Assembly (NCBI GenBank): GCA_965243025.1
Contig: CBDETY010000003.1
Span: 3,072,001 to 3,136,000, forward strand
Source of the DNA: Candidatus Latescibacterota bacterium
Lineage (GTDB): Bacteria; Latescibacterota; UBA2968; UBA8231
Length of the DNA: 64,000 nt
Reading direction: 5' to 3'
Below are positions 1 through 15,216 of the stretch, piece after piece. Position numbers and translations under genes: made by a program. The notes below the pieces were generated by a model that saw only the letters and a program-made list of their open reading frames with translations, ran no database searches and was not told where the DNA came from. Every line of letters starts with the position of its first letter. Position 1 is the stretch's first letter.

Positions 1-57
1 GGTCGGGGTTGTCGGGACGGGAGCCGCGCAGCCTGGCTTGTTATACGCCGGGCGTGA
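1..57 (-). mobile_element. attC-like site downstream of the GNAT cassette (truncated by window edge)
   Basis: Minus-strand GTATAAC (40-46) is complementary to GTTATAC at the cassette start (641-647); complementarity extends to 17/18 nt. Confidence 0.65.
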
Positions 58-95
58 CGGGGTGGAAGGGTGTCGGGGGGATTTGCCCACGAGAG

Positions 96-611
96 CTACT
101 CGCTTAGGTCGACCCAGTATCTCTTGTACTTAGTTCTTGTGTCTACATCCCGAAGTTCGTCTTCCAGGATTCCCCCGTTTGCTTCGATCACCCTGATAGA
201 TGCACCGTTAACTGAGTCCGTCGTTACAAGTACCCTTGTGACTCGCATGTCCTTTGCTTCGCGCAGAGCTGCCGCCAGCATGGCCTTCCCGTATCCTTTA
301 CCTCTCGCAGATGGCTTGACGTAGTAGCCGATGTGTCCGCCTTTATGCTTGAGCTCGGGTGTCAAGGAGTGCCGCAGTCGACACATCCCGACGGGACTGC
401 CGTCGTCGTCCAAGAACCAGTAAGTGGACTGCGCCACCAATCCTGGCCTCAGTCCTTTCCCTTCAGCGGAATCAACGAGACGCTGCAGGTACTCGCCCAG
501 TTCCCCTTTGACATAGTCCGTTCCTCCGAACCCGCTTTCTCCGTTGCCAACCTCCTCGAGGAACGCATCAAGGCCTTTGGGTGGGTTCGGGGAGGCTTTG
601 ACTAGCTTCAT
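96..611 (-). CDS. GNAT family N-acetyltransferase (putative gene cassette)
   Basis: Acetyl-CoA motif 'GHIGYYVKPSARGKGYG' and 'N.ASIRVIEANGG'; bounded by the 17/18 inverted repeat at 40-57 and 630-647. Confidence 0.9.
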   Translation of the reverse strand: MKLVKASPNPPKGLDAFLEEVGNGESGFGGTDYVKGELGEYLQRLVDSAEGKGLRPGLVAQSTYWFLDDDGSPVGMCRLRHSLTPELKHKGGHIGYYVKPSARGKGYGKAMLAAALREAKDMRVTRVLVTTDSVNGASIRVIEANGGILEDELRDVDTRTKYKRYWVDLSE

Positions 612-640
612 CAGACTCTTTCCTCATCCTCACGCCTGGC

Positions 641-729
641 GTATAACATTATGCCGGTTTGCGAACCCGCGAAGCGGGTTCCGGAGGCCAAGGCGCGAAT
701 GCGCCGCAGCGCAAAACGTGCTGATATAT
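641..729 (-). mobile_element. attC-like recombination site with branched internal hairpins
   Basis: Minus strand ATATATC-agcacgttttgcg...cgcaaaccggcataat-GTTATAC; internal hairpins aacccgc/gcgggtt and ggcgc/gcgcc; homologous copy at 14702-14793. Confidence 0.7.
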
Positions 730-765
730 GACGTTGGATCCAATGATTCAAACGGAAAACAATGT

Positions 766-1362
766 TTAAGGAACGCAAAACCACCATTGAGGGGACGAAG
801 CAACAATTTCTGCCATCTTGGAATAGCCAATACTTCTCGGATGAGACCCGTCATTTTCGGAGACCTCCCGCGTATAAGCCTCATCCCAACAGAGGGCAGA
901 AAAGAGATCGATGTACGGAACATTGAGCGATTGAGCCTCTATGGTGAAGGCACGCGAGAGTTCCTCAACTCTGTCATTTTGTTCGTCATCGAGTACGGGC
1001 GGAGGCCCCACCACCAACACATTATACCTTTTGGCTTCTTTCAGCATTGATCTGACGTTTGTGCAGGAATCCTCTGGCTCTACACGCACCCTTCCATTCT
1101 CTATTGCCGTATCGTTTACGCCACATGAGATAACCACCCTACCATCGCAGAAATCAGGCAGCCGTAAGACGCATTCGCTCTCCCAACGAAGTAGGATGTC
1201 GCTGCTCGTGTCTCGACGAATTCCAAGGTTGTAGTAGGTGACGGGCGTACCACTGGTGCTTGCTCTGGCACACAATCGCCCTGCCCAGCCAAGGGCATCC
1301 TCATCACCGGTACCATTGACGAACGAGTCACCAATAAAGCAAATCCTGATATCCTGGGTCAC
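766..1362 (-). CDS. SGNH/GDSL-family lipase/acylhydrolase (putative gene cassette)
   Basis: GDS block 'FIGDSF', 'NLGIRR', 'GVND', catalytic 'DGSHP'; lower GC; bounded by 15/16 inverted repeats at 723-738 and 1383-1398. Confidence 0.9.
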   Translation of the reverse strand: MTQDIRICFIGDSFVNGTGDEDALGWAGRLCARASTSGTPVTYYNLGIRRDTSSDILLRWESECVLRLPDFCDGRVVISCGVNDTAIENGRVRVEPEDSCTNVRSMLKEAKRYNVLVVGPPPVLDDEQNDRVEELSRAFTIEAQSLNVPYIDLFSALCWDEAYTREVSENDGSHPRSIGYSKMAEIVASSPQWWFCVP

Positions 1363-1400
1363 GCGTGTTCAATCCCCTAAAGTCCAATGTCATATATCTG

Positions 1401-1429
1401 ATTACACCCGAACATTTGGTTAGGGTAAT
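1401..1429 (-). mobile_element. attI-like simple site
   Basis: Minus strand CCCTAAC-CAAAT-GTTCGGG has the same L-5bp-R layout as attI1 (CCCTAAA-ACAAA-GTTAGGC); it lies at the head of the cassette array. Confidence 0.5.
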
Positions 1430-1664
1430 GCACCACAGGGTGTTATTTATCTGAAACGATAGTACGTTCCGGGGTGAACCCTCGCAACTTTTCCCCGCTC
1501 GGGGATTTTCCCTAACCCGTTGCGATTGAGACACATAGCCCGTTCTCCGATCCCTGATGGGGACTGACACGGTTTCTCTTACGGCAGGGGCTAACCCGTG
1601 CCTTTGAAGCCGTCATGGGTGTTCGGAGCATCATCTTGACCAGCCCGACGACGAGGGCGCAAGC

Positions 1665-1890
1665 TTGGACCGGGTCGAATCCGAGTTTTCCTTGGGGAGG
1701 GGGACGCCAAGAAAGCGCCGAAGTCCTACATGGGCTACTGCCAGAGATTCCTTCTGTGGAAACGGCTCCTCGACCGGGGAGTGAACGGCTCCGCCTTCAA
1801 CAGCGCAGCGTTCTAAGCTTCTCTACGGAGAGTCTGAAAACAGCCCGTCCCCTTGGAGGGACTGCGCATGCATTCGCTTCCAGTTCTTGC
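1665..1890 (+). pseudogene. Decayed tyrosine recombinase (integron-integrase-like N-terminal SAM domain)
   Basis: Frame-hopping translation gives LDRVESEFSL / AKKAPKSYMGYCQRFLLW..LLDRGVNGSAFN / KLLYGE / KQPVPLEGLRMHSLPVL, resembling 'LRGYSxKTxKxYxxxxxRF...LLxxGxSxSxxNQxxSALKFLY...LPxVL'; divergent from the cassettes. Confidence 0.5.
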
Positions 1891-2209
1891 CGTCCCTGAT
1901 CTTAGAGGGGAGTCTCCGAGGAGGATTACCCGGCATTTGAGCAGGCGGTGGTCGAAGAGTGCCTCGCGGGATTCCGGCGCGGAGGAGGAGTTTCTCGGCG
2001 ATTTCACCGAAACCTGAGAACCTACCGAATCGATGGGAACACCCTGCCGGTCACCACCCTGGCAAACGGCGAGGTCGGCACCAATAAACTGATTGCCCCA
2101 TCATTCGTCCACGGCCATCGCCCGAACCACTTGGAGTATCCTGAAGGCGGCGCATTTTATGCCGGAATAAAACAGGCATCAAGAAGGCAAGGCCATCAGA
2201 TGATGAAGT

Positions 2210-2234
2210 GAAATGTCCCAATTTGGGACATTTC
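2210..2234. promoter_or_regulatory. Perfect 12-bp-arm palindrome (operator/UAS-like)
   Basis: GAAATGTCCCAA-T-TTGGGACATTTC; a related weaker palindrome GTCCAA-TT-TTGGAC is at 2628-2641. Confidence 0.4.
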
Positions 2235-3260
2235 CTGATTACAGCCCTGGGGGATCAGGATAGTCCCGATGGGCGCATTCCGTTCTCGATCCGAGGGGTT
2301 TTCTGATCCACGGGGCAGGTTCCCAAGGAGAGTTTGACCTGCTTCCGTTTCCGGAAAACCTGTGCAGCTTCACCTGAGATCCGGCAAAACGCCCGATCCA
2401 AAAGGAACCCTCAGATCGCTCGTTTCAATGACCCCCCTGCCCAAAACCCAGCTAGAAGAAATCCTCCTCGCGATGCTCTTGCCGTCGAGAAGCCCTCACT
2501 CCGTCGTATCTTTGAAGGTAGCATTTCAGGAATTCGGCTTGGTTGCGGGATTACCTCCGCGTCCTCGTAGTTCCGCTTGGGGAGCCTGCCGTGGGGGATC
2601 CTGAATGCTCGGCGGCGGGGATTGGATGTCCAATTTTGGACGTATCATGTAGCGGCTTCACTACCTCATCAGATCCCGCACCTTCCTCGGGAGGACCGAC
2701 CAGAGCGCCTTTCCCGTAAAGGCGCCGCACCGAGATAAACGGGAAAAGACTGAAGGCGTGCGGGATTACCTCCGCCGGGAACCGTTGCAGAAGCGAATGT
2801 CTTTCTGGCAAGCAGCCGGCACCTCCACGCGTAGTTCCGGAATCATTGTCACCGAGCCGGCATCCCGGATTTCCCGGCTAAACAGGAAGGACCTGGATGT
2901 CCTTCCCTCGGTTTTCTCTTCTCTATTTATATGGTTATACCAGATTTCCATTTCCGCAAAATCGCGCTTCGGATCAGGCATCTACCGTCGCAATGTGCAG
3001 GGGACTTGAGCCGACCTTCAATACCGTCCGTTTCCCACGTGGGAAAAACCCTTCTGCTGTGAGACCCTGCATCATCCATCGATAGGCGGTGCTCCTGGTG
3101 ATGCCGAGAACGGATTTCCAATGAACTCTCCTCCCCCGGGCGCTTCCCGACACCGCGACGGTCGCATTGTTGTCGCCCGCGACAGTTCCGACGCGGTCCG
3201 CACGATCAACCGACAGATAGGACCATTGGCAATCTTGCCCGGGCAACTAACCCCGATGCA

Positions 3261-4082
3261 ATGCCGGCGACCAAGGTGACCGACACGGTAGCCGTCTACG
3301 ACCTCGACGCCCGCTCCTTCCACTCTATCCTCGTGCACCGTCTCGACTACCGGCCACAACCCGCACCGGCCGTCGGCAACGTGGTCGTCTTCTCGGAACC
3401 GGCCTACGCCCCTTGTCGAGCTGAGAAGCTCCAGCTCGCCACCCCCGCCTACTACCGCGATCACGAAGGTCTTGAGCCCGGAATCCGCGACCATCACGAC
3501 GGCACCCTCACCCGGGACGGTACGCGGTGGGCAAGCTCGATCATGGGTGGGACCGTGAGCGCCCGCCTTTCGTTTGCCTCCTCAAGCGAACCCTGGGTCT
3601 ACTGCGCCTCCCATTACCGCACCGACAGGGAGCTTCGCCGTCTGCGGAGCGAATTCGGTGGCAAGTACGGCTATTCGTCGGCTACCTGGATAGAGGATGC
3701 CGATGCCTTCGCCGCATGGCTCGGCGTCGACTTCGCTCTGGGCCTCGACAAGACCGCCGATGTCTCGCTCGGTCCCATTGACGAGATCGGCTACGCACGC
3801 AGCAGCTACACGACGGATTTGTGGGATGGATCCCGTCCCGTCGACACCTTCGTTCACGTCTACCACGGTCAGGTCAACTACCAGGACGTGTCTGGCCGCC
3901 TCGACAGGCAGGAACAATGGTTCCACCCGAACGCCGGTCCCATGGCATGGTTTACCAAGAAGAATTCGTTCAGGAACCAGAGCGAGTACCGCTTCGCGGT
4001 CACGACGCCTGGCACTCCGGTGCAGCCGAAACACTACGTCGCCGTGTCGCCGGAATTGAGCGCCCTGACCTCCGCCCTGTGA
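3261..4082 (+). CDS. Hypothetical protein
   Basis: 273-aa ORF with coding-like composition; 'WVYCAS' and 'WFTKKNSFRNQSEYRF' motifs. Confidence 0.75.
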   Translation: MPATKVTDTVAVYDLDARSFHSILVHRLDYRPQPAPAVGNVVVFSEPAYAPCRAEKLQLATPAYYRDHEGLEPGIRDHHDGTLTRDGTRWASSIMGGTVSARLSFASSSEPWVYCASHYRTDRELRRLRSEFGGKYGYSSATWIEDADAFAAWLGVDFALGLDKTADVSLGPIDEIGYARSSYTTDLWDGSRPVDTFVHVYHGQVNYQDVSGRLDRQEQWFHPNAGPMAWFTKKNSFRNQSEYRFAVTTPGTPVQPKHYVAVSPELSALTSAL

Positions 4083-4479: not shown

Positions 4480-4679
4480 GGGAGCTGGACTTGGCGGAGT
4501 GGATCCCGGAAGCCATGAAATACTCTGACTATGGAGTTTTCTTCGACATCAGGGAATTTCGGGCGGACTACTTTCTCGACGGGATGCTGCTGCCCGCCAA
4601 CGCGGTCGAAACGGGGGAAAGCAGCGCTGTCGAGTCGGTTTCCTGGGGGCGGATCAAGGCCTCCCTGGAGATGGAGTAG
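4480..4679 (+). pseudogene. Orphan C-terminal fragment of the secreted 'SWGRIK' paralog family
   Basis: ADYFLDGMLLPAN...SAVESVSWGRIKASLEME is nearly identical to the C-termini of 60336-61307 and 61444-62454; the N-terminal ~250 aa are absent. Confidence 0.75.
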
Positions 4680-4706
4680 CCGGCGTACTGGGCGTACCTC
4701 ACCATT

Positions 4707-4735
4707 CCCGTCGAGTCTCGACGGGCTCATCTTTT
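4707..4735 (+). terminator. Possible intrinsic terminator
   Basis: Inverted repeat cccgtcgag-t-ctcgacggg with a T-tract shortly after, downstream of the 4679 stop. Confidence 0.35.
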
Positions 4736-4803
4736 TAGAGCGTGGTTACCGTACCGGCTCCCTCCCCCGGGTCACGACGCACCGCCGCAGATCGTGGACA
4801 CGC

Positions 4804-6110
4804 ATGAAACCGAAACCGTATGTCAGCGTCACCCTCGAAGGCCCGGACGACGGCGGCGACTTCGGCCGCAACACCCCGGGCACGAGAACGGGCGGCATCC
4901 AGGAAGCCCTCGACTACGCCCACGCCCACTCGCGGGACGTCTGGATCTGGGGCGGCCGCGGCGGCGTCCACGACGGCGTGGGATCGTCCCACAACATCTA
5001 CACCCTCGAGGAGACCCTGCGCGTCCCCTGGAGCCAGGACTTCCGCCTCGACGGGGGAAACTACCTGCTGTCCTACACCGGGGAGAGCGGGCACGCCATC
5101 CATTTCGACAGCCAGATGAACTGCCGCTACAAGTTCGGCCTCGTCAGCTCCGGCTCCCCCGACGCGGTGGTGGCGATCCGGCCGGAGAACCCCGGCCCCG
5201 ACGACTTCACCTGCGTCACCGCGTCGGTCTTCGACTTCGCCTGCGCCGTCTCCAGCCACCCCGAGGGGACCGGCATCCTCCTCGACTCGTCGCACGGCCC
5301 CGTCGTCAACAGCAAGCTCTTCGCCGAGGAGACGAACACGCGCGGCACCGGCCTGCACCTCAGCGACGGCAACGGCAGGGGCCACAACCTCGGCAACAAC
5401 ACCATCGAGATCCTCTACGGAAACCAGTACCACGCGACCGGGGACTGCGCCGGCCTGCGCTTCGGCGACCCGGAGTCGGACAAGATCCGGCACAACAGGC
5501 TCGCCCTCTCCTTCCACGCGCCGCGGGCGGCGCACTTCGACGAGGAGACGCGGCGCTACGTCACCGTGGAGGACTTCGTCGCGGACAATGCTTTCGGAGC
5601 GGTGATCAGCGCCCAGCGAAACCTGTTGACCCTGTCCTGCTTCGGCCCCCGCCGGCCCGGGTGCGACGTCGTCTTCGAGAAGGGGGCGCGGGACAACACC
5701 GTCGTGGCCCTCAGCCTGCCCAACGGGGTCACCAACAGGGCGGAGGTGCCATCGAACCGGATCCTCTGCAACTGGCCGGCCGGGTTCTCGGTGGAGACGC
5801 CGGAGGTTCCGCCCTCGGGAGTTCCGGTTGTCAACAGGAGTTCGCTATCGGTGCAGGTCCTCATCGTCGATCCGGGAGAGGTGCGCTCCTGGACGATCGC
5901 CGACTGCGGCAGCACGGCCCCGCTGGCTCCCTTCAACCTGAGCCTGGCGGACAGCCACGGGCCGCGGCCGGCGGAGCCGGGGCCGGAGCGGGAGGCGGGG
6001 TCACAGACGATTAGGGGTCGGCTGTACGCGGGCAGGTGATTCTGCTGGAGCCTGGGGACGCGGTCTCGTTCGTTTACGACGCGCCCCCGGTGTGGAGGTG
6101 GAAGGGGTGA
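4804..6110 (+). CDS. Hypothetical protein, possibly beta-helix/pectin-lyase-like, with a frameshift near the 3' end
   Basis: 'TGGIQEALDYA' N-terminus; the ORF stops at 6039 but a shifted frame continues QVILLEPGDAVSFVYDAPPVWRWKG* to 6110. Confidence 0.65.
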
Positions 6111-6239
6111 GCAGGGCGGTTTTCCAGTCCGGCCTGCTTGGGGGGCGCGGTTTCTTACCTGTTGATCTTTCTCAGCCGTCAGGTATTCAAGGGGGCCGCG
6201 ACATGCCCTCCGGTCATGCCAAGTGCCGTAGGAATACCG

Positions 6240-7166
6240 ATGGCGGAATTCGACACCGTTTCCAAATACCTGGTTCAGACCTATCCCGGCGACATCGCCC
6301 GCTTCACCCTCGAACGGGAGGACGTCGAAGTTCTCGAGCTGCTCGAAACCGAACAGACCACCCTCGACGCGCGCCGTCCCGACAGCCTGCTGCGCGTGCG
6401 CCTGGGCGGCGAGGAAGTTGTGGTCCATACGGAATTTCAAACCACCGGCAGCACCCGCCCGCCCATGCCTCAGCGCATGGCCGGCTATATCTGGCGCATC
6501 ATCGAGCAGTACGGCCTTCCGGTCCGCTCCAGCGTCGTCTACCTGCGCCCGCAGGCCGGCCGCAACGATCCGGGATACTATCTGCGGGCGCGTCCCGGCC
6601 ACCGGGTCTTCTTCGAGTACAGGGTGATCCGGCTGAGCCAGATGGAGGGGCAACCGATTCTGGAGGCCGGTCCTGCGGGGCTGATTCCGTTCGCGCCTCT
6701 GATGGCACACCCGGCGGAGGTGGCCGCGGATGCGTGGCTGCATCAGTGCGTGCAGGCGGTCCATGCGCTGCCGATGGACCGGTCCGCCCGAAGCGACCTG
6801 CTCTCCGGCCTGTCCATTATCAGCGGCCTGGTTTACGGGTCCGAGACCATTTCTGACATTATCTCCAGTGAGGGCATCATGGACATCATGCGCGAATCAT
6901 CCTTCGGCCGACTCCTCGCCCGGGAATGGAAAAAGGAAGGCCTCGAGGAAGGCAGGGAGGAAGGCAGGGAGCAAGGCCTCGAGCAAGGGCTTCGGGAAAG
7001 CATCCGCGACGTGCTGGAAATCCGCTTTGCCTTGGGCGCGCCCCACCCTCTGGCCGACCGCCTCGAGGCCATCGGCGACCGGCACCGCCTCAAGCAATTG
7101 CTCCGGGCCGCGATCCAGGTGGACAGCCTGGAGGAATTCCGGCACCTCGCAGAGGCCGGGCAATAG
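6240..7166 (+). CDS. Rpn/YhgA-like PD-(D/E)XK nuclease (recombination-promoting nuclease/putative transposase)
   Basis: 'RRPDSLL...VHTEFQT...MPQRMAGY', 'PVRSSVVYL', C-terminal EGLEEGREEGREQGLEQG repeats. Confidence 0.88.
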   Translation: MAEFDTVSKYLVQTYPGDIARFTLEREDVEVLELLETEQTTLDARRPDSLLRVRLGGEEVVVHTEFQTTGSTRPPMPQRMAGYIWRIIEQYGLPVRSSVVYLRPQAGRNDPGYYLRARPGHRVFFEYRVIRLSQMEGQPILEAGPAGLIPFAPLMAHPAEVAADAWLHQCVQAVHALPMDRSARSDLLSGLSIISGLVYGSETISDIISSEGIMDIMRESSFGRLLAREWKKEGLEEGREEGREQGLEQGLRESIRDVLEIRFALGAPHPLADRLEAIGDRHRLKQLLRAAIQVDSLEEFRHLAEAGQ

Positions 7167-7426: not shown

Positions 7427-7768
7427 TCACGCGACCTGTTGCGGCGTCGCAGTCAAGGAAACATCCAGGCTCACCCGTCCGTAAGGAACCCTCGGGATCA
7501 CCGTTCCGACATCGTCTTGAGCGTCCGCGAGAGATTCGACTTGTTGCGCCCTGCGAGCTCCGCAAGCTCGGTAAGCGAATCCGGTTTCTCACGGGCGATC
7601 AGACCAAGCAGCTCGCGATTGGGCAGAGAGCACCTTCGCGAAGCTCTCGATGGACGTAAACCAGACCGTCGGCTCGCCCCTGGCGGGCTTGTGTTCCCCG
7701 CGGGCGATCGCCATCGTGCGCGCCTTCATCCGGTCGTAGCCGACAATGCCGATTCTCAGCGTCGTCAT
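7427..7768 (-). pseudogene. HTH antitoxin-like regulator (DUF6516 partner type), frameshifted and internally deleted
   Basis: MTTLRIGIVGYDRMKARTMAIARGE...VWFTSIESFAKVLS, frameshift, NRELLGLIAREKPDSLTELAELAGRNKSNLSRTLKTM, then a tail PRVPYGRVSLDV in another frame. Confidence 0.7.
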
Positions 7769-8149: not shown

Positions 8150-8337
8150 ATGAATTACCGAGTCTTGGTGGAAGTAGATGAAGACGGCGTTTTCGTCGCC
8201 GAGGTTCCCTCCCTGCCGGTTGCGTTTCTCAGGGCGCTTCACGAGACGAAGCACTTACCAACGTCCGAGAGGCCATTTCCCTATACATTGAAAGTCTCGA
8301 GGAGCGAAGCGAGCAGGTGCCGCCGCCAATCAGTTAA
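8150..8337 (+). pseudogene. hicB: HicB-family antitoxin, frameshifted
   Basis: GGAGG RBS; MNYRVLVEVDEDGVFVAEVPSLP, then shifted GCVSQGASRDEALTNVREAISLYIESL. Confidence 0.75.
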
Positions 8338-8545: not shown

Positions 8546-8811
8546 AAATTCTCCTTTCCTGACGCGTCATTAAACGCGCACTGATTATCCTCGTTATTCC
8601 GGCTCGTTGGGTATGCGATATGACTGATTCAATCTCGACAGGCCAAAAGTAAGGTAACGTTCTTCATCCAATGAAAACGTCCCGCCCTGGCTGCAGCGGG
8701 AACTGCGCGAGCTGACCCAGCAGCTCGGGTTGCTCGAGGGGGTTTGAAGGAGAGGGGGCCACTGTTTTTGGGGACCCGCTGGCAATAACCTTCTCCGATC
8801 CCGACCACTCA
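8532..8811 (-). pseudogene. BrnT-family toxin remnant split by an inversion
   Basis: Minus strand: SLDEERYLTFGLS...RIISARLMTRQERRIYEEG*; plus strand 8758-8811: ATVFGDPLAITFSDPDHS. Confidence 0.7.
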
Positions 8812-9648
8812 GTGGACCACCGGTGAATCGAACAGGCCCTTCCAGTGCAGGATGTGCTTGCACACGGAGAAGGCGTAGGGATCCGGGGTGCAGTAGGCGA
8901 TCATGGGCAGCATGCGGTGGTAGAACAGGTGCCGGGCTTCGTCCCACGCGCCGGCCTGCACCAGCCGGTGCAGTTCCACCTCGCGATCAGGCATGACGGC
9001 GGCGCTGCCGGCAACCACGCCGTCGGCGCCGGAGACGTAGGCGGGCAGCGAGAAGGCGTCCCAGCCGCAGATGCAGGTCGCTTGCGGGGCGGCGTCCTTG
9101 AGGCGGTCGAAGGAGTACACGTTGCCGCTCACCTTGACGGTCGTGATCCGCTCGATGGCGTCTACCAGGGGCAGCACTTCGCGGTCCACGTCGAGGGTGC
9201 CCTCGTTGGTCTGGTCGTAGAGCATCACGGGGATCCGTTCGGCGATCTGGCTGAAGAAGCCGTGCAGGTCCGTCCTGGTCAGCTTCCTAGTCATGGCGAA
9301 GTCGGCGCCGCACCGGGCCGCGAGCTCCGCGGCGGGCAGGCCGCGGTCTTCCTCGACGCTGATGATGCCCATACCCACGGGAACGCGGCCGTTCACGTGC
9401 TCCAGCACCGTGGTCAGGACCTCCTCGATCTCCTCGAGACTCTGCCCCTCGAACTCCCCCGCCTTGCCGCAGGCGACCACCGCCGACACCCCCGGCTCCA
9501 GAACGAAGTCGATCTGGCGGCGCATGCTGGCGGGGTCGAAGCGGGTTCCGTCGTCGCTGAACGGGGTGAACAGAAGTGCCACCACCCCCTTGATCACCTC
9601 GCCGCTGTCGACGGTGCGTAGCTCTGTAATATCCGTGTTCGCTGTCAT
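8809..9648 (-). CDS. Dihydrodipicolinate synthase/N-acetylneuraminate lyase family aldolase; 3' end displaced by an inversion
   Basis: 'ALLFTPF', 'GKAGE', 'MLYDQ', Schiff-base Lys in 'TVKVS'; probable C-terminal helix on the opposite strand at 8673-8747. Confidence 0.8.
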   Translation of the reverse strand: MTANTDITELRTVDSGEVIKGVVALLFTPFSDDGTRFDPASMRRQIDFVLEPGVSAVVACGKAGEFEGQSLEEIEEVLTTVLEHVNGRVPVGMGIISVEEDRGLPAAELAARCGADFAMTRKLTRTDLHGFFSQIAERIPVMLYDQTNEGTLDVDREVLPLVDAIERITTVKVSGNVYSFDRLKDAAPQATCICGWDAFSLPAYVSGADGVVAGSAAVMPDREVELHRLVQAGAWDEARHLFYHRMLPMIAYCTPDPYAFSVCKHILHWKGLFDSPVVH

Positions 9649-9707
9649 TCCTTCGATCTCTTCCCGGCCATCGCCGCGAATCCGGAACGGTGTCCCAAAG
9701 CGCCCCG

Positions 9708-10163
9708 TTACTGCCCCACCCCTGCGCCCGCGGCAGGCTGCTGCCGCGCAGCACACCGGAACAACAAGGCGGAGCCGACGGCTGAAACCGCGCTCAGCGA
9801 GGTCGTGGAACCGATTATCGCCAGAACCAGAAACCACAGCGGATGTTCGGATGTCATTGTCCCGAAAACAAACGGAAGCACTCCCAGCACCAGACCAGCC
9901 ACCGCCCCCCAGGCGGCGAGTCGGCGAAGCGGCAACTCGCTGAATCGGCGGCCGGTCTCTGCAAGCCGGAGCACTGCGAAAAAGATCACGCCGCCGACGA
10001 AGCCGGGCGTCGCCAGCGCAATCCAGGGATCGAGGACGGATTCCTCCGGAATGCCCAGGAAGCCGCTGATTATCCCTATCAGCGCACCCAGAAGCCCCCA
10101 TCCGGCTGCCCAGGCCAGCCCCATCCCGACAGCGCCGCCGATGCGTCCAAGCCACTCTTTCAT
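9708..10163 (-). CDS. Hypothetical membrane protein (about 4 TM helices)
   Basis: Four hydrophobic Gly/Ala-rich segments; ATG at 10163. Confidence 0.75.
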   Translation of the reverse strand: MKEWLGRIGGAVGMGLAWAAGWGLLGALIGIISGFLGIPEESVLDPWIALATPGFVGGVIFFAVLRLAETGRRFSELPLRRLAAWGAVAGLVLGVLPFVFGTMTSEHPLWFLVLAIIGSTTSLSAVSAVGSALLFRCAARQQPAAGAGVGQ

Positions 10164-10294
10164 TTCTACCTGCTTTATAGGGATAGGGTTCCCCGGCAGT
10201 GAGGCGAAAGCCCGGGGGGATCTTCCTGAATCATGATTGGGCCAAACGCCCCGGGGCCCGAACAACAAGCAACGTCCGCTACAGACGCCTCATT

Positions 10295-11110
10295 TCACCC
10301 GACGCGAATTCGCTGCTCTTCGCCAAGGCGGTCGAGAATGTCATCGATCCCGCAGTAGCAGACGCCGCACTCATACGGGTGCCGGCCGCTTGCTCGCAGG
10401 GCCGCGGCATTCTCCGCGTGAAATGAGCCCCTGTGGTCCATGTACTGCCCCCAGTGTCCTGCTGTGCCGCTGGAGAATTCCCAGGCCCGGAACGAAGCCG
10501 CCCAAGCACCCGGAAACAGATCCAGGAACGGTGGAAATCGATTCAACCAGCTCCCGCAAACAGCTGTCTTTGCTGTCGGATGGGCGTTCTTGGCCTCGAC
10601 CAGCATATCCTGAAGACTGGCGGCCAACCGCTCCCTGAATGCGTGCGCGAATGGGGAGTCGGGCTGGTAGGCATTGGCAAAATGGATATCAAGACAATCC
10701 GTCAGGTCCGGTAAAAAGTGATGTTTTGGAAGGAAATAGAATCGCCAGCACTGAAATGGACCATCCGTATAACTCTGGGAACGTTTGTACCTGGTTCCAA
10801 TGATTGGTGCAACCAGCGGCTCGAGCAGCTCCCAGCACTCAGTTTCAAGCTCATCTGGGTCGGCAATGCTGAGGATCCTCTCGCCTAACTGACTCTTGAG
10901 ATTCTCCCATTCCGCATTGGGCGGGTCCAGAACCGATTCCGGATGGCGGCCATCGTACAACGCCGTGTGCCGAAGGATATCGACTCGCATGTCGAATGCT
11001 TCCGACAGCGAGATCCGATGTTCCTCCCGGGATACCATGTGCTTCACGTACCACACCATCAACTTCAACGAATTGACAACAAAGTCACGGTAGGCTTCAA
11101 ACCCGCTCAT
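10295..11110 (-). CDS. Hypothetical protein
   Basis: 271-aa ORF overlapping the upstream PhyH gene; 'CGSWLN', 'HWGQY' motifs. Confidence 0.75.
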   Translation of the reverse strand: MSGFEAYRDFVVNSLKLMVWYVKHMVSREEHRISLSEAFDMRVDILRHTALYDGRHPESVLDPPNAEWENLKSQLGERILSIADPDELETECWELLEPLVAPIIGTRYKRSQSYTDGPFQCWRFYFLPKHHFLPDLTDCLDIHFANAYQPDSPFAHAFRERLAASLQDMLVEAKNAHPTAKTAVCGSWLNRFPPFLDLFPGAWAASFRAWEFSSGTAGHWGQYMDHRGSFHAENAAALRASGRHPYECGVCYCGIDDILDRLGEEQRIRVG

Positions 11111-12014
11111 CGCCGGCTTCTACACTCTCGTTCCAGTCGCGGGCCGACCGCGCGACGCGGTCTGGATGATGGCTGCTGCGGGCGACAAAGCCAGGCACCT
11201 CGGCTCGACCGGTCGGCAGTCCCAGAGCGCTGTACCGGGTGTCGACGCTCCAGCGGACGGTTTCGGACAGGTTCGGCAGCGACCGATGCAGGACACGTTT
11301 GGTCGTCAGCAGAACATCCCCCACATTCAACTCACCGGTCACGACCTCGCGGTCGGGGAGGTCCCGGTCGGCGATGCCCACGCAGTGTTTGCCGTTGGGC
11401 AGGGGTACCCGCAGGTCGTGGGGCAACAGCGGCAGTCCGTGCGTGCCGCGCATCATCTGCATGCAGCCGTTCTCCGCCCGGGCATCGACAAGTGGGATCC
11501 AGCAGTTCAGCAGCAAGGTATCCCCGACCTTTTCCGAGTCCACAAAGGCCAGGTCCTGATGCCAGGGAAGGACGGTCTCCGCCTGATCCGGAAGCTTCGT
11601 GCGGATGTTGAACTGCGGGTGGGCCAGTATCTCGGGACCGATTATGGATTCGACGACATCCAGGAGCGATGGCCAGGTTCGCAGTATGAACATGCCGGCG
11701 GTGCGTGGTTTCTGAACCTGGTCATGGATGTTTTTCTCGGCGAAACAGTGCTCCCACGCCCAGTTGCGCTCCGAGCAGGCCTTGCAGACCGAGGCCAGAC
11801 GGGTCTCGAACGGTGCGTCGGCGAACGTCTGCGCCGGGTCCAGCACCCCTTGTTCGACTGCCGCGTGCGCTGCCTCGTCGACTTTCTTCTTCAGTTCATC
11901 GATGAGCGGCTGAATCGCCGCGCGGGGCAACAGGTCCCGAACGATGAAAAAGCCACCTTCCAGGAACCGCCCAACCCGATCCCCGGTCAGCCCCGTTGCC
12001 TTCATGCCGCTCAT
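11097..12014 (-). CDS. Phytanoyl-CoA dioxygenase (PhyH) family Fe(II)/2OG dioxygenase
   Basis: 'PWHQD', 'NCWIPLVDARAENGC', 'LHRSLPN...RWSVDTRY'; ATGA overlap with the ankyrin gene. Confidence 0.9.
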   Translation of the reverse strand: MSGMKATGLTGDRVGRFLEGGFFIVRDLLPRAAIQPLIDELKKKVDEAAHAAVEQGVLDPAQTFADAPFETRLASVCKACSERNWAWEHCFAEKNIHDQVQKPRTAGMFILRTWPSLLDVVESIIGPEILAHPQFNIRTKLPDQAETVLPWHQDLAFVDSEKVGDTLLLNCWIPLVDARAENGCMQMMRGTHGLPLLPHDLRVPLPNGKHCVGIADRDLPDREVVTGELNVGDVLLTTKRVLHRSLPNLSETVRWSVDTRYSALGLPTGRAEVPGFVARSSHHPDRVARSARDWNESVEAGDERV

Positions 12015-12979
12015 GCGTCCAACACCGCGACCAAATCGTCCCTCGATTGGTTCCTGGCCACATCCACCGGCCTTTTGCCCTCCGAGTCCGTCAACCGGAT
12101 GTCGGCACCGTTTCTCAGCAGGGCGCCAATCACCTTGGGCGTAGTTCCTGCCTCGTAGCACGCAGCATGGAGGACGGCGGTTCCGGCAGGCCGCCCCCAT
12201 CTGGGGTTGGGCGATACATAGTTGACATCGGCTCCAAGCTCCACAAGAGCCAGAACCACCTCACCGCACCCTCCGAAAGCGGCGCTGAACAAAGGGGTCC
12301 AGCCAGGCTGTTGCATGAACTGGTCGGGGGTATCCAGATCTGCCCCCCGGGCCGCCAACGCCTTGACGACCTCGACCCGATCGGCCCCTGCCGCATGGTA
12401 CAGCGGGGTCGCCTGCCGGTACGAGTCCTTCGCCTCCAGCCAGGCGGAAGATTGGGCCAGGATCCGATCGACCTCCTGAAGATCGCCCAGGGCGGCGGCT
12501 GCGTGGATCGTCATCTCCGCGCCTGCGGCCAACAGGGCTTCCACCATCGCGATCCGACCGTGCCCGGCCGCGGTCATCAGGGCGGTCGAGCCGGCGCTTC
12601 CCTTGACGTTGGGATTGGCTCCGTGCCGAAGAAGGCTGAAGAGGGCTTCTTCCTTGTTCTGGAAGGCGGCCTGGACCAAGGGTGTACACCAGCCCATATC
12701 CGCCCCGAAACTCACCGACTCGACGGGCGCACCCGCGGCGAGCAACGAGTCCACACAATCAGAGGCGCCCAGCGCACTCGCACAGGCCAGTGGGTCCAGT
12801 CCGCGTGGAGCCTCGAATCCGCGAGAATCCCACGCTTCTCCGGAGAACTCGTTCGGCCAGGAATCACCTGTCAGCCAGGCATCAACCAGGTCGGGGCGAA
12901 CATTCAGTATCGTCCGAACCAAATCGGCTTCACGTCTCCAGATCGCCTCGAACAACTCATGGGCCGTGGGATCGGGCAT
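12011..12979 (-). CDS. Ankyrin repeat protein
   Basis: Multiple TPL/TALxxAA...LLxxGA repeats. Confidence 0.9.
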   Translation of the reverse strand: MPDPTAHELFEAIWRREADLVRTILNVRPDLVDAWLTGDSWPNEFSGEAWDSRGFEAPRGLDPLACASALGASDCVDSLLAAGAPVESVSFGADMGWCTPLVQAAFQNKEEALFSLLRHGANPNVKGSAGSTALMTAAGHGRIAMVEALLAAGAEMTIHAAAALGDLQEVDRILAQSSAWLEAKDSYRQATPLYHAAGADRVEVVKALAARGADLDTPDQFMQQPGWTPLFSAAFGGCGEVVLALVELGADVNYVSPNPRWGRPAGTAVLHAACYEAGTTPKVIGALLRNGADIRLTDSEGKRPVDVARNQSRDDLVAVLDA

Positions 12980-13033
12980 GGGTAGACTCCTTCGCTTTTG
13001 CGCAGCTCCACGATTCCTGTGTCGACAACGATG

Positions 13034-14077
13034 TCAGGATTCCACAAGGCTCCTCAAGCCGCCTTCCAGGTCGTCCAGCCATTGCGGCGTTCTCGGGTGA
13101 AAAACTCCCAGCACTTCCCAGAACCAGCATAAACCGGCCCCCCTGGTGGCTTGCCTGACCTTGAGGTACGTGTCATCCGGTTCTATCCGCACTCCACCAG
13201 CCTCCACATACCCCGACCAGAACTCCTTCGGATAATGGGGCCGGCCGTAAATTTCCTGAGGCTTTCGGTTGAACTCTGCTGCGACATGCAGTTGTTCGTG
13301 CAGGAGGTCGCCGGTCGCTGCATTCTCAAAATCGTGAATACCGACAATATGCCCGTCATCATCAACCAGAAGATTGTGTATGGCTGCATCTCCCCATAAA
13401 AGCCCCTGTGGGCTCGGACCGGGCACAATATCGATCTTGCCCAGAAGATCCTCGATAACGGGCAACCTGCCTCGACAATCTTCTGGCAAGTCTGCTGCCA
13501 ACTCCTGGTTGTCAAGGAGTTTTCTCCGTATGTCATCCCGCCATCCGGTCATATCCTGCACCGGAAAAAGACCGTCGGTGACCTTTTGTTCATTGATGAC
13601 AGCAATCACAGAGCCGAATTCCTCGAGCAGGCGGCACCTCCGATCATCGCTGGTACCGGGCATCTCGAAAAAGTCCCGTCCTTGAGTACCTGGAAGCAGG
13701 TTTGAAATCAGGTAAGGATATCCGAACGCATCGGTGTCCTCGCACAGTACGCAGATCTCAGGAACGGGCAGAATGGTTGTATCGCGCAACAATGCGGTCA
13801 TATTGTGCTCGACCGTCAGCGAGAAAGCTTTCCGATATTTGATTTTGACGATGTAGCTGCCGTCGCGACAAACTGCTTTGTAAACACAGTTGGTCGGATT
13901 TGCTTCAAGTTCAGTCCAATCGATAACCGAGCCCAGTCCTTGACTGTAAATAGCCACTGCTCCCTGCTCGGCTGTAAAGGTCGGCTTTGCCGTGTTGGCT
14001 TCTCTGAATGCTTGTTTGCTGATCGCCAAATCCACGCTCTGATGGAATGTAGTTTTCTTGATGTCCTGGTTGATCAA
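13034..14077 (-). CDS. Aminoglycoside phosphotransferase (APH)/kinase-like protein
   Basis: 'PVPEI', 'LLWGDAAIHNLLV', 'IHDFE'; TTG start overlapping the upstream stop (start uncertain). Confidence 0.8.
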   Translation of the reverse strand: MINQDIKKTTFHQSVDLAISKQAFREANTAKPTFTAEQGAVAIYSQGLGSVIDWTELEANPTNCVYKAVCRDGSYIVKIKYRKAFSLTVEHNMTALLRDTTILPVPEICVLCEDTDAFGYPYLISNLLPGTQGRDFFEMPGTSDDRRCRLLEEFGSVIAVINEQKVTDGLFPVQDMTGWRDDIRRKLLDNQELAADLPEDCRGRLPVIEDLLGKIDIVPGPSPQGLLWGDAAIHNLLVDDDGHIVGIHDFENAATGDLLHEQLHVAAEFNRKPQEIYGRPHYPKEFWSGYVEAGGVRIEPDDTYLKVRQATRGAGLCWFWEVLGVFHPRTPQWLDDLEGGLRSLVES

Positions 14078-14628
14078 TCTATCCGGGCCAGAACCTCGGC
14101 CTTCAGATCGTCGAGGCTGCGCCATCCGTCCAGAATGAGATCGCTTACGTCCCTGGCTTTGCAGGCATCCAGAAACGGGTACCGAGCCTTTACCAGATAG
14201 TGGGTCAATTCACCTCGCAGATCCTCAAATGCTTCTTCTGAGGGCTTCTGGCTATCGCCGGAATAGTCTCTCAAGATTCGACGCGCCATGGCTACGTCGA
14301 GGGGAGTATCGATGAATACGTCGAGATCGATGATGTCGGCGAACCGGGGGTGGCGGCGTCCAAACGGAAAATCGAGAATTATCTGTTTCGCCCTACCCCT
14401 TTGAATCTCTTCGTCGACCGCGTTTCTCATCCCGGGACAGTCGAATTCCGTTATTTCCGCCCCTCGGCGGCTCCACTCATAGAAGTCCTCTGGATAAACG
14501 TTGGAGTCATCAAAATCGTCGAAGCAAAACAAAGCTGATTCCGGTAGTGACCGATGCAAGGCGGTCGCCAGGGCGGTTTTCCCTCCTCCGGAGACAGAAT
14601 TTATCGAGACGACAAAGTGCGGATTCAT
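14074..14628 (-). CDS. P-loop nucleoside kinase (uridine kinase-like)
   Basis: Walker A 'SVSGGGKT', 'FIDTPLDVAMARRILRD'; GTTAACC directly precedes the ATG. Confidence 0.85.
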   Translation of the reverse strand: MNPHFVVSINSVSGGGKTALATALHRSLPESALFCFDDFDDSNVYPEDFYEWSRRGAEITEFDCPGMRNAVDEEIQRGRAKQIILDFPFGRRHPRFADIIDLDVFIDTPLDVAMARRILRDYSGDSQKPSEEAFEDLRGELTHYLVKARYPFLDACKARDVSDLILDGWRSLDDLKAEVLARID

Positions 14629-14701
14629 GGTTAACGGAAGGCGGTGACGCACCGCCCCTTGCGAGTGGGCGGTTGGTCGAAGGCCCAAGGGCCCGGGGCG
14701 G

Positions 14702-14793
14702 GGTAAGGTTATGCCGGTTTGCGAACCTGGGGCAGCCAGGTTGCCGAAGGCCAGGGCGCGATCAGCGCCGTAGCGCAAAACGTGCTGTTAGCC
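14702..14793 (-). mobile_element. Second attC-like site homologous to 641-729
   Basis: Minus strand GGCTAAC-agcacgttttgcgct...gttcgcaaaccggcataac; shares both arms and the hairpin layout with 648-722. Confidence 0.65.
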
Positions 14794-14829
14794 GCTGTCG
14801 CCAGGCAATGATTCGGGATCGAGTTGCTC

Positions 14830-15216
14830 CTACTCAAATAATCGCCGGACCGCAAGGGCATTATGAACGAAAGTCTCTTCGAAAGGCGTACGCCCATTCA
14901 AATTCTTGGACTCCCGTTCAGCTCCCCGATCTAATAACAACTCCGCAACCTGTCGTTGGTTTCCGTGTGCAGCAGCATGGAGAGGTGTTGTGCCCCAGTG
15001 GGGGTTTTCGTTGTGCGCATCGATGCTTGCTCCTTGATCGAGCAAATACGCCACTACCTCGACATGACCCTTCCACGCGGCGCAGTGAAGTGGCATTGAA
15101 CCATCCTTGTCTGTTGCGGCTAGAAGGGCTGCATCCCTGTTTATCAACAACTTGACCGTCTTGAGGTCGCCTCGTTTGGCCGCTTTGATGACTGCTTTCT
15201 CTTCCTCGGTTCCCAT
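14830..15216 (-). CDS. Short ankyrin repeat protein
   Basis: 'PLHCAAWKGH', 'GTTPLHAAAHGN'; lower GC; followed by an attC-like site. Confidence 0.9.
   Translation of the reverse strand: MGTEEEKAVIKAAKRGDLKTVKLLINRDAALLAATDKDGSMPLHCAAWKGHVEVVAYLLDQGASIDAHNENPHWGTTPLHAAAHGNQRQVAELLLDRGAERESKNLNGRTPFEETFVHNALAVRRLFE

Follow-up and report, generated by a model that had tools for sequence, protein, structure and literature searches.

The left end of a 64,000-nt stretch of a Candidatus Latescibacterota genome (GCA_965243025.1, contig CBDETY010000003.1, positions 3,072,001–3,136,000 of the forward strand; referred to as the window) carries two minus-strand genes, one for a GNAT N-acetyltransferase and one for an SGNH/GDSL hydrolase, which from their sequence context are well supported as integron-type gene cassettes. 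Positions 1–1398 probably form one end, either attI-proximal or broken, of a cassette array of the integron type that is chromosomal and has no integrase. Such a segment is similar to a CALIN, which the relevant part of Cury et al. (2016, PMC4889954) describes as attC sites that are clustered without an integron-integrase. On the minus strand, the array would comprise the SGNH cassette (1397 to 647) and a GNAT cassette that starts at 646 and runs past the left edge, each made up of one open reading frame (ORF) followed by one attC site. Recombination between two attC sites on the folded bottom strand would release the cassettes as circles, and their insertion would be carried out by an IntI-type tyrosine recombinase encoded outside the window. 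As this enzyme is not in the window, the segment would either be CALIN-like or be served in trans. It could be a cluster of attC sites without an integrase or, alternatively, the integrase-distal product of a rearrangement.

Two putative cassettes at the left end of the window

The elements assigned to the two cassettes are the following (R2 is a covariance model described below):

96–611, minus strand: cassette ORF of 171 aa, GNAT N-acetyltransferase (Pfam Acetyltransf_1, 3.2e-15)
766–1362, minus strand: cassette ORF of 198 aa, SGNH/GDSL hydrolase (esterase; Pfam Lipase_GDSL_2, 5.8e-20)
1–57, minus strand: 5' part of the putative attC of the GNAT cassette, with R'' box GTATAAC at 46 to 40; the window edge cuts the site
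57 to 47, minus strand: outer-stem extension of the GNAT attC, complementary to the start of the GNAT cassette
630–646, minus strand: start of the GNAT cassette, with TTATAC of the chimeric R' box and the extension; right arm of the first repeat
641–729, minus strand: putative attC of the SGNH cassette, 89 nt (R2 106.1 bits, E = 6.9e-33 over 631–741; covariation; fold)
729 to 723 and 647 to 641, minus strand: boxes of the SGNH attC, R'' ATATATC and R' GTTATAC; putative crossover between 647 and 646
723–738, minus strand: R'' box and outer-stem extension of the SGNH attC; left arm of the second repeat
1383–1398, minus strand: start of the SGNH cassette, with R' GATATAT (1398 to 1392) and the extension GACATTGGA; putative crossover between 1398 and 1397

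Both ORFs lie within inverted repeats of their own. The repeat around the GNAT ORF spans 39–57 and 630–648 with 18 of 19 positions matched (17 of 18 when taken as 40–57/630–647), and the one around the SGNH/GDSL ORF spans 723–738 and 1383–1398 with 15 of 16 matched. One lone 15/16 inverted repeat is unremarkable in this window, which holds eight repeat pairs of at least 15/16 at spacings of 100–1500 nt, compared with a mean of 2.7 (range 1–7) in 40 Markov shuffles. Two neighbouring intergenic pairs, each around exactly one gene, are not expected by chance, and both obey a rule common to the related arrays (see below).

The original prediction had reported both repeats and read them as the trace of a circular cassette opened within its attC. 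Both are present with the matches it gave (17/18 and 15/16), and the pairing of each site with its own cassette places the opening at G|TT of the R' box. That the array continues to the left of position 1, as also proposed there, is very likely, since the R'' box of the GNAT attC is found at 46 to 40 and the window ends inside the site. This left-edge site was placed using the repeat rule; in its truncated form it was missed both by the covariance model and by nhmmer with a 31-copy profile.

The G+C content of the cassette region is 55% compared with about 67% in the backbone, which speaks for the array. Homologues of the GNAT protein were found with 95% and 81% identity, followed by others with at most 58%. 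The SGNH protein has 2553 homologues, many of them 65–89% identical, and is 63–77% identical to proteins with names from Gemmatimonadota, Nitrospirota, Leptolyngbya (a cyanobacterium) and Guyparkeria (a gammaproteobacterium). The identity of this esterase across phyla is unusually high and could fit a circulating cassette. A blastn search of positions 1–1450 against plasmids gave no match.

A family of folded sites and the position of the crossover

Integron attC sites are roughly 55–140 nt long and form, as single strands, an imperfect palindrome with a bulged stem and a variable top. They have an R'' box with the consensus RYYYAAC and an R' box with the consensus GTTRRRY in inverse orientation, with invariant AAC and GTT. 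The SGNH site spans 89 nt from R'' to R' and is predicted to fold with a bulged L''/L' stem, the bulged bases being in the L stem, and two to three internal hairpins that form a three-way junction. Its R'' box reads TATC instead of TAAC and is thus one conserved base off. A second full copy is found further into the window:

14691–14805, minus strand: another complete member of the attC family, located 3' of the ankyrin-repeat ORF 14830–15216 (R2 92.7 bits, E = 2.2e-28)

The two copies are about 88% identical over a core of ∼80 nt, and two base pairs of one inner hairpin are altered on both sides, i.e., in a compensatory manner. When public genome contigs were scanned with the 17-mer core shared by the two copies, 91 loci were returned. 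A first covariance model was built from the two window copies, and a second (R2) from 17 copies with their flanks. Covariance-model analysis left four real loci (L017, L025, L054, and L088), all from two Candidatus Latescibacterota metagenome-assembled genomes (MAGs), while the other 87 of the 91 were chance matches. With R2 and a threshold of E ≤ 0.01, 31 sites could be identified in the 60.7 kb of the four loci (12 in L025, 9 in L017, 9 in L054, and a single one in L088, which is on a second contig of one MAG). Within the window R2 finds only the two sites, with 106 and 93 bits. The original description of 641–729 as a structured spacer holds, and 31 more copies are present in two MAGs.

The ends of the sites are those expected of attC. 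Among 33 sites, TAAC is found at the start of 21 and TATC at the start of 7, while 18 end in GTTA and 5 in GATA, giving a family consensus of nnnTAAC...GTTAnnn. The fold is also conserved. On the 17-copy alignment, 78% of the cells are paired compared with 28–42% when the partners are slid, and 18 of the 29 pairs have changes on both sides. In 500 shuffles the observed value was never reached for four of the five measures and was reached four times for the fifth (further pair types). The structure used in this test was written by hand from a pairwise fold; RNAalifold on a MAFFT alignment gave one hairpin only. Covariation therefore supports the branched fold that the original prediction had assigned to the spacer.

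The arrangement of the sites is likewise that of cassette arrays. All sites of a locus are on one strand in L025, L017 and L054. In L025 a stretch of 14.5 kb contains 12 sites, and most of these immediately follow the 3' end of an ORF. The window has the co-oriented order SGNH ORF, attC, GNAT ORF, and start of an attC. The cargo of the related arrays is cassette-like and includes GNATs, NUDIX, glyoxalase, HigB/HigA, APH, ankyrin, and DUF proteins. The label "atypical" given to this system by the original prediction is overstated, since the sites have the sequence and architecture of attC; the integron type of the cassettes was well seen.

Some details of the related arrays can be added. A HigB-like toxin and a helix-turn-helix (HTH) antitoxin are encoded inside the array at L017:9306–9986 (minus strand), as in large chromosomal integrons, and an IS3-family transposase pair (HTH_Tnp_1 and rve) lies in the array at L025:3957–5179, beside a truncated APH-like ORF. 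Two pairs of attC sites have no ORF between them, one with a distance of 10 nt (L017:2777–2881 and 2892–3002) and one with a distance of 141 nt (L054:12101–12206 and 12348–12450). These may be empty cassettes or tandem sites.

The copy at 14.7 kb in the window has its R' box mutated to CTTA and is accompanied by a partial further site at about 14700 to 14632. This partial site (14632–14700, minus strand) has two hairpins and a GTTAACC box that abuts the start codon of a kinase gene, and it aligns with L025:11264–11369, the site that precedes the orthologous kinase gene. The full copy and the partial site appear to be fused or in tandem. No inverted repeat was found to bracket the ankyrin gene at 14.8 kb; the sole repeat there is 75% matched and has the wrong geometry.

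In integron arrays, the bases after the G of an R' box belong to the next cassette. It follows that an R'' box is expected to pair with the first bases of the cassette it belongs to and not with the R' of the same site. This is what the family displays. The variable triplet is fully matched in 10 of 29 adjacent pairs; among same-site pairs this is the case in 1 of 32, and among all other pairs in 20 of 1028. The own-cassette score over 16 positions is above background (Mann–Whitney p = 1.5e-6), which the same-site score is not (p = 0.31). Of 26 informative pairs, 24 have a base 2 of R' that is complementary to the R'' of the next site (Fisher p = 2e-4, compared with p = 1 within the same site). 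Seven of the R' boxes have GATA in place of GTTA, and six of these are followed by a site with TATC or TATT as its R''.

The two repeats of the window are the two best instances of this own-cassette rule. The GNAT cassette has 14 of its 16 variable positions complementary to 646–631, which is the top own-cassette score in the data set, and the SGNH cassette has 11 of 16 positions complementary to its own R'' side. The single mismatch of each repeat is located at the conserved mismatch position of the family, which is C/A in the top strand and a G·T wobble in the bottom strand. The sites are thus chimeric as in integrons, with the variable part of the 3' box and about 9 nt beyond it owned by the next cassette. 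Taken together, the chimera rule and the covariation of base 2 place the crossover right after the G (G|TT), as in integrons.

In integrons it is the bottom strand that recombines and that is the better structured of the two. Folding in silico would fit a bottom-strand substrate formed in the circle. With the cassette ends joined, the bottom-strand fold has −25.3 kcal/mol compared with −21.8 kcal/mol in array form (p = 4e-4), and across 28 sites the bottom strand is on average 1.9 kcal/mol more stable than the top strand (p = 6e-4). The corresponding values for the SGNH site are −35.5 (joined), −31.3 (array, bottom strand) and −26.3 (top strand). A word of the form G-(A/C)-(A/C)-A-T(G) is conserved just 3' of R' throughout the family (1391 to 1387 and 640 to 636 in the window); in some cassettes, e.g., at L025:3453, its ATG is the start codon of the ORF.

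A more far-reaching interpretation, which we consider unlikely, is that Latescibacterota carry a lineage-specific sedentary cassette system with a recombination site that departs from the textbook attC. Such a site would have an outer stem reaching ∼9 bp further than the R boxes and closing only after excision as a circle, a G·T wobble found in the bottom strand only, a nearly invariant three-way junction, and two compatible R-box alleles (GTTA/TAAC and GATA/TATC). The array of this genome would start at a site without a recognisable integrase. In that case a recombinase that is unlinked or highly divergent would be needed to move the cassettes, and the repeat-rich stretch 1399–1600 would be a new kind of attI.

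The missing integrase and other explanations

Two features were considered to the right of the first cassette:

1399–1600, minus strand: upstream region, possibly attI or the stump of a lost site, to judge from position and short motifs
1558–1899, plus strand: frame proposed as a fossil integrase, with no protein similarity and no coding look

The sequence CCCTAAC-N5-GTTCGGG, pointed out in the original prediction as an attI-like site, is real and lies on the minus strand at 1425 to 1407. A second R'-like box, TCAGATAAATAACA, is found 53 nt upstream at 1454 to 1441, and TAACCCGTT-like words occur three times, at 1513, 1536 and 1592 on the plus strand. The covariance model gave a match of 4.2 bits in 1399–1600, which is not significant. 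A complete integron would also have a Pc promoter; a consensus scan of the minus strand over 1399–1700 gave no sigma-70-like site. By position and short motifs it is plausible that this region is an attI, but the indications are only suggestive.

The same prediction had seen a resemblance to the N-terminal domain of a tyrosine recombinase in 1665–1890, and this did not hold up. We analysed a frame of 113 aa (1558–1896) together with its neighbouring frames. None of 30 stop-to-stop frames of 1331–3581 matched a recombinase in Pfam at E ≤ 10, where besides a weak AlpA-type HTH at 2977–3246 only chance-level matches to EmrE and Caskin were obtained, and none of 13 frames of the same region did so in NCBIfam at E ≤ 10. 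The 113-aa frame matched only glucose-6-phosphate isomerase in PDB (E = 1.1) and had no match at E ≤ 0.001 among 1.84 billion representative proteins. Coding phase is lacking as well, as the codon-phase spread in G+C is at most 0.13 across 1400–3200 compared with 0.3–0.5 in strongly phased high-G+C genes at 3.6–7.2 kb. The AlpA-type match belongs to a 90-aa ORF at 2974–3246 (minus strand) with a weak similarity to AlpA/excisionase-type HTH proteins (E = 0.007, below the curated cut-off), and may be the trace of an integrative element beside the array.

Searches over the rest of the window gave no Phage_integrase or IntI match in 45 ORFs of 1–20.5 kb or in 39 ORFs of 20–64 kb, and no integrase in the 72 frames scanned of the 107 frames of at least 50 aa in 3.3–11.5 kb. 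In a complete integron the array is adjoined by intI, which encodes a tyrosine recombinase with the IntI-specific insertion. Such a gene is absent from the scanned ORFs and frames, and the absence expected of a CALIN extends over those ORFs that were scanned in the 62 kb on the right-hand side.

That the segment was once a complete integron and has decayed, with attI at about 1400–1440 and remains of intI at 1665–1890, strikes us as improbable. The geometry would be right for it, as an intI is expected at this place relative to the first cassette; R-box-like words are present at 1407–1425 and 1441–1454, and 1400–3260 is non-coding-like as a very old pseudogene would be. None of the searches described above, from the Pfam frames to the protein set, returned a recombinase, which is evidence against such remains. 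The lack of an intI pseudogene is in itself ordinary, because 95% of the integrase-less clusters have no recognisable one nearby according to the part of Cury et al. (2016, PMC4889954) that deals with them.

Several observations weigh against an integron-type array. The SGNH site of the window has TATC in its R'' box where AAC is canonical, and the copy at 14.7 kb has CTT in place of GTT. The window array holds one complete attC only, the second being cut by the edge. Because just two MAGs account for all the related copies, the site counts are not phylogenetically independent, and some "adjacent" pairs score at background, perhaps through missed intervening sites. No integron integrase was found with Pfam among ORFs of at least 100 aa in three related loci of 20 kb or in the ORFs and frames of the window that were scanned, and the enzyme is therefore one that we infer.

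The repeat might instead be a dispersed intergenic element active in RNA (a terminator, a stabiliser of mRNA, something REP-like, or the leader of the gene downstream), with the bracketing repeats being incidental. The copies are placed between co-oriented genes, occur singly at 14.7 kb and in L088, and have a conserved covarying fold that selection on RNA could also produce. From such a role one would not expect pairing of the 5' box with the beginning of the gene unit it belongs to instead of the 3' box of the same site, nor a better fold of the strand that is not transcribed (bottom), nor sites that end in TAAC/GTTA and occur once per ORF in long arrays. Rfam returned nothing at gathering scores for the whole window, nor at E ≤ 5 around both copies. 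We therefore give an RNA element very little credence, even less than a decayed integron.

It is hardly credible that the modules are moved by another site-specific system, for instance as dif modules that depend on Xer or as invertible segments between inverted repeats. Every gene does lie within an inverted repeat of its own, a feature of pdif modules and invertons, but the array sites share one orientation without alternation, are folded sites of about 90 nt in contrast to 28-bp duplex sites, and have repeat arms that differ among cassettes and obey the G|TT chimera rule. The scanned ORFs and frames of the window also gave no recombinase, whatever its type.

Neighbouring DNA and comparison with known systems

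To the right of the cassettes, 1.85 kb (1400–3260) look non-coding. This stretch contains a perfect 12-bp palindrome with a 1-nt centre (2210–2234) and a perfect 17-nt direct repeat (2544–2560 and 2759–2775, 215 nt apart). It is followed by three plus-strand ORFs (3261–4082, 4531–6039 and 6138–7166) with a strong coding signal and a third-position G+C of up to 0.99, none of which has a Pfam or NCBIfam match. These ORFs sit between the end of the cassettes and a region that is shared with L025. Two short frames look like gene fragments. One, at 7501–7725 on the minus strand, matches HVO_A0114/MarR-type HTH proteins and lies within DNA shared with L025 (18289–19009), and the other, at 8182–8334 on the plus strand, matches HicB-like antitoxins.

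Comparison of 8800–14630 in the window with L025:11400–15750 showed 88–92% identity over the kinase, PhyH and DHDPS genes, and the two stretches are collinear except for gene-sized blocks, a difference that favours the cassette-array interpretation. Judging by this similarity, the L025 organism is a close relative of that of the window. One block, 12011–14125, is found in the window only and contains APH and an ankyrin gene between the kinase and PhyH genes, while in place of window 9948–11113 L025 has two attC sites and a DUF6933 gene. When nine proteins of the window, GNAT and SGNH among them, were compared with all loci by tblastn, only ankyrin matches were obtained. The GNAT and SGNH cassettes of the window were therefore not seen in the related arrays sampled.

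No paper on integrons in Latescibacterota was found by title or by the start of the abstract, in a search that left the supplementary tables of integron surveys outside its scope. The array described here would extend integron-type cassette arrays to a poorly known uncultured phylum, and a working covariance model is now available for the Latescibacterota attC family. As evidence from sequence for both circular intermediates and a G|TT crossover, the long own-cassette repeats are unusually clean. Family-specific details of the site (the ∼9-bp outer stem, the bottom-strand wobble, the near-invariant three-way junction, and the GTTA and GATA alleles) are of moderate specialist interest. The cargo, a GNAT and an SGNH esterase, is ordinary, and the general understanding of integrons is unchanged.

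The pdif (XerC/XerD) modules of Acinetobacter plasmids have 28-bp duplex sites in alternating orientation. The cassettes of the window are like them in being single genes within inverted repeats, but are unlike them in having folded sites of about 90 nt, one orientation, and TAAC/GTTA ends.

A CALIN is another similar system. Like the clusters described in the corresponding part of Cury et al. (2016, PMC4889954), the segment has chromosomal attC sites and cassettes with no nearby integrase or recognisable intI pseudogene, and a cargo other than the classical resistance cassettes. A CALIN call by IntegronFinder 2.0 requires two attC sites, according to the portion of its description that gives the definition (PMC9024848). 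In contrast to this definition of at least two detected sites, the array at the left end of the window has one complete attC and one that is cut by the edge and unscored by the profiles. The visible end of the array also resembles an array start more than a random break.

Finally, the segment and its relatives can be compared with the cassette arrays of sedentary chromosomal integrons, for example the superintegron of Vibrio, whose attC sites are the VCRs. Unlike these, no intI or proven attI is seen here, and the host belongs to the phylum Latescibacterota. The stem also runs about 9 bp past the R boxes, the conserved mismatch is a G·T wobble in the bottom strand only, and the R boxes come in two paired forms (GTTA/TAAC and GATA/TATC). 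In common with sedentary chromosomal integrons, the arrays are on one strand with mostly one ORF and one attC per unit, and their sites are similar within the lineage, end in RYYYAAC/GTTRRRY boxes, are chimeric, and have the crossover at G|TT. The long site with its branched top and the diverse cargo, which includes toxin-antitoxin pairs, are further features that the Latescibacterota arrays share with them.

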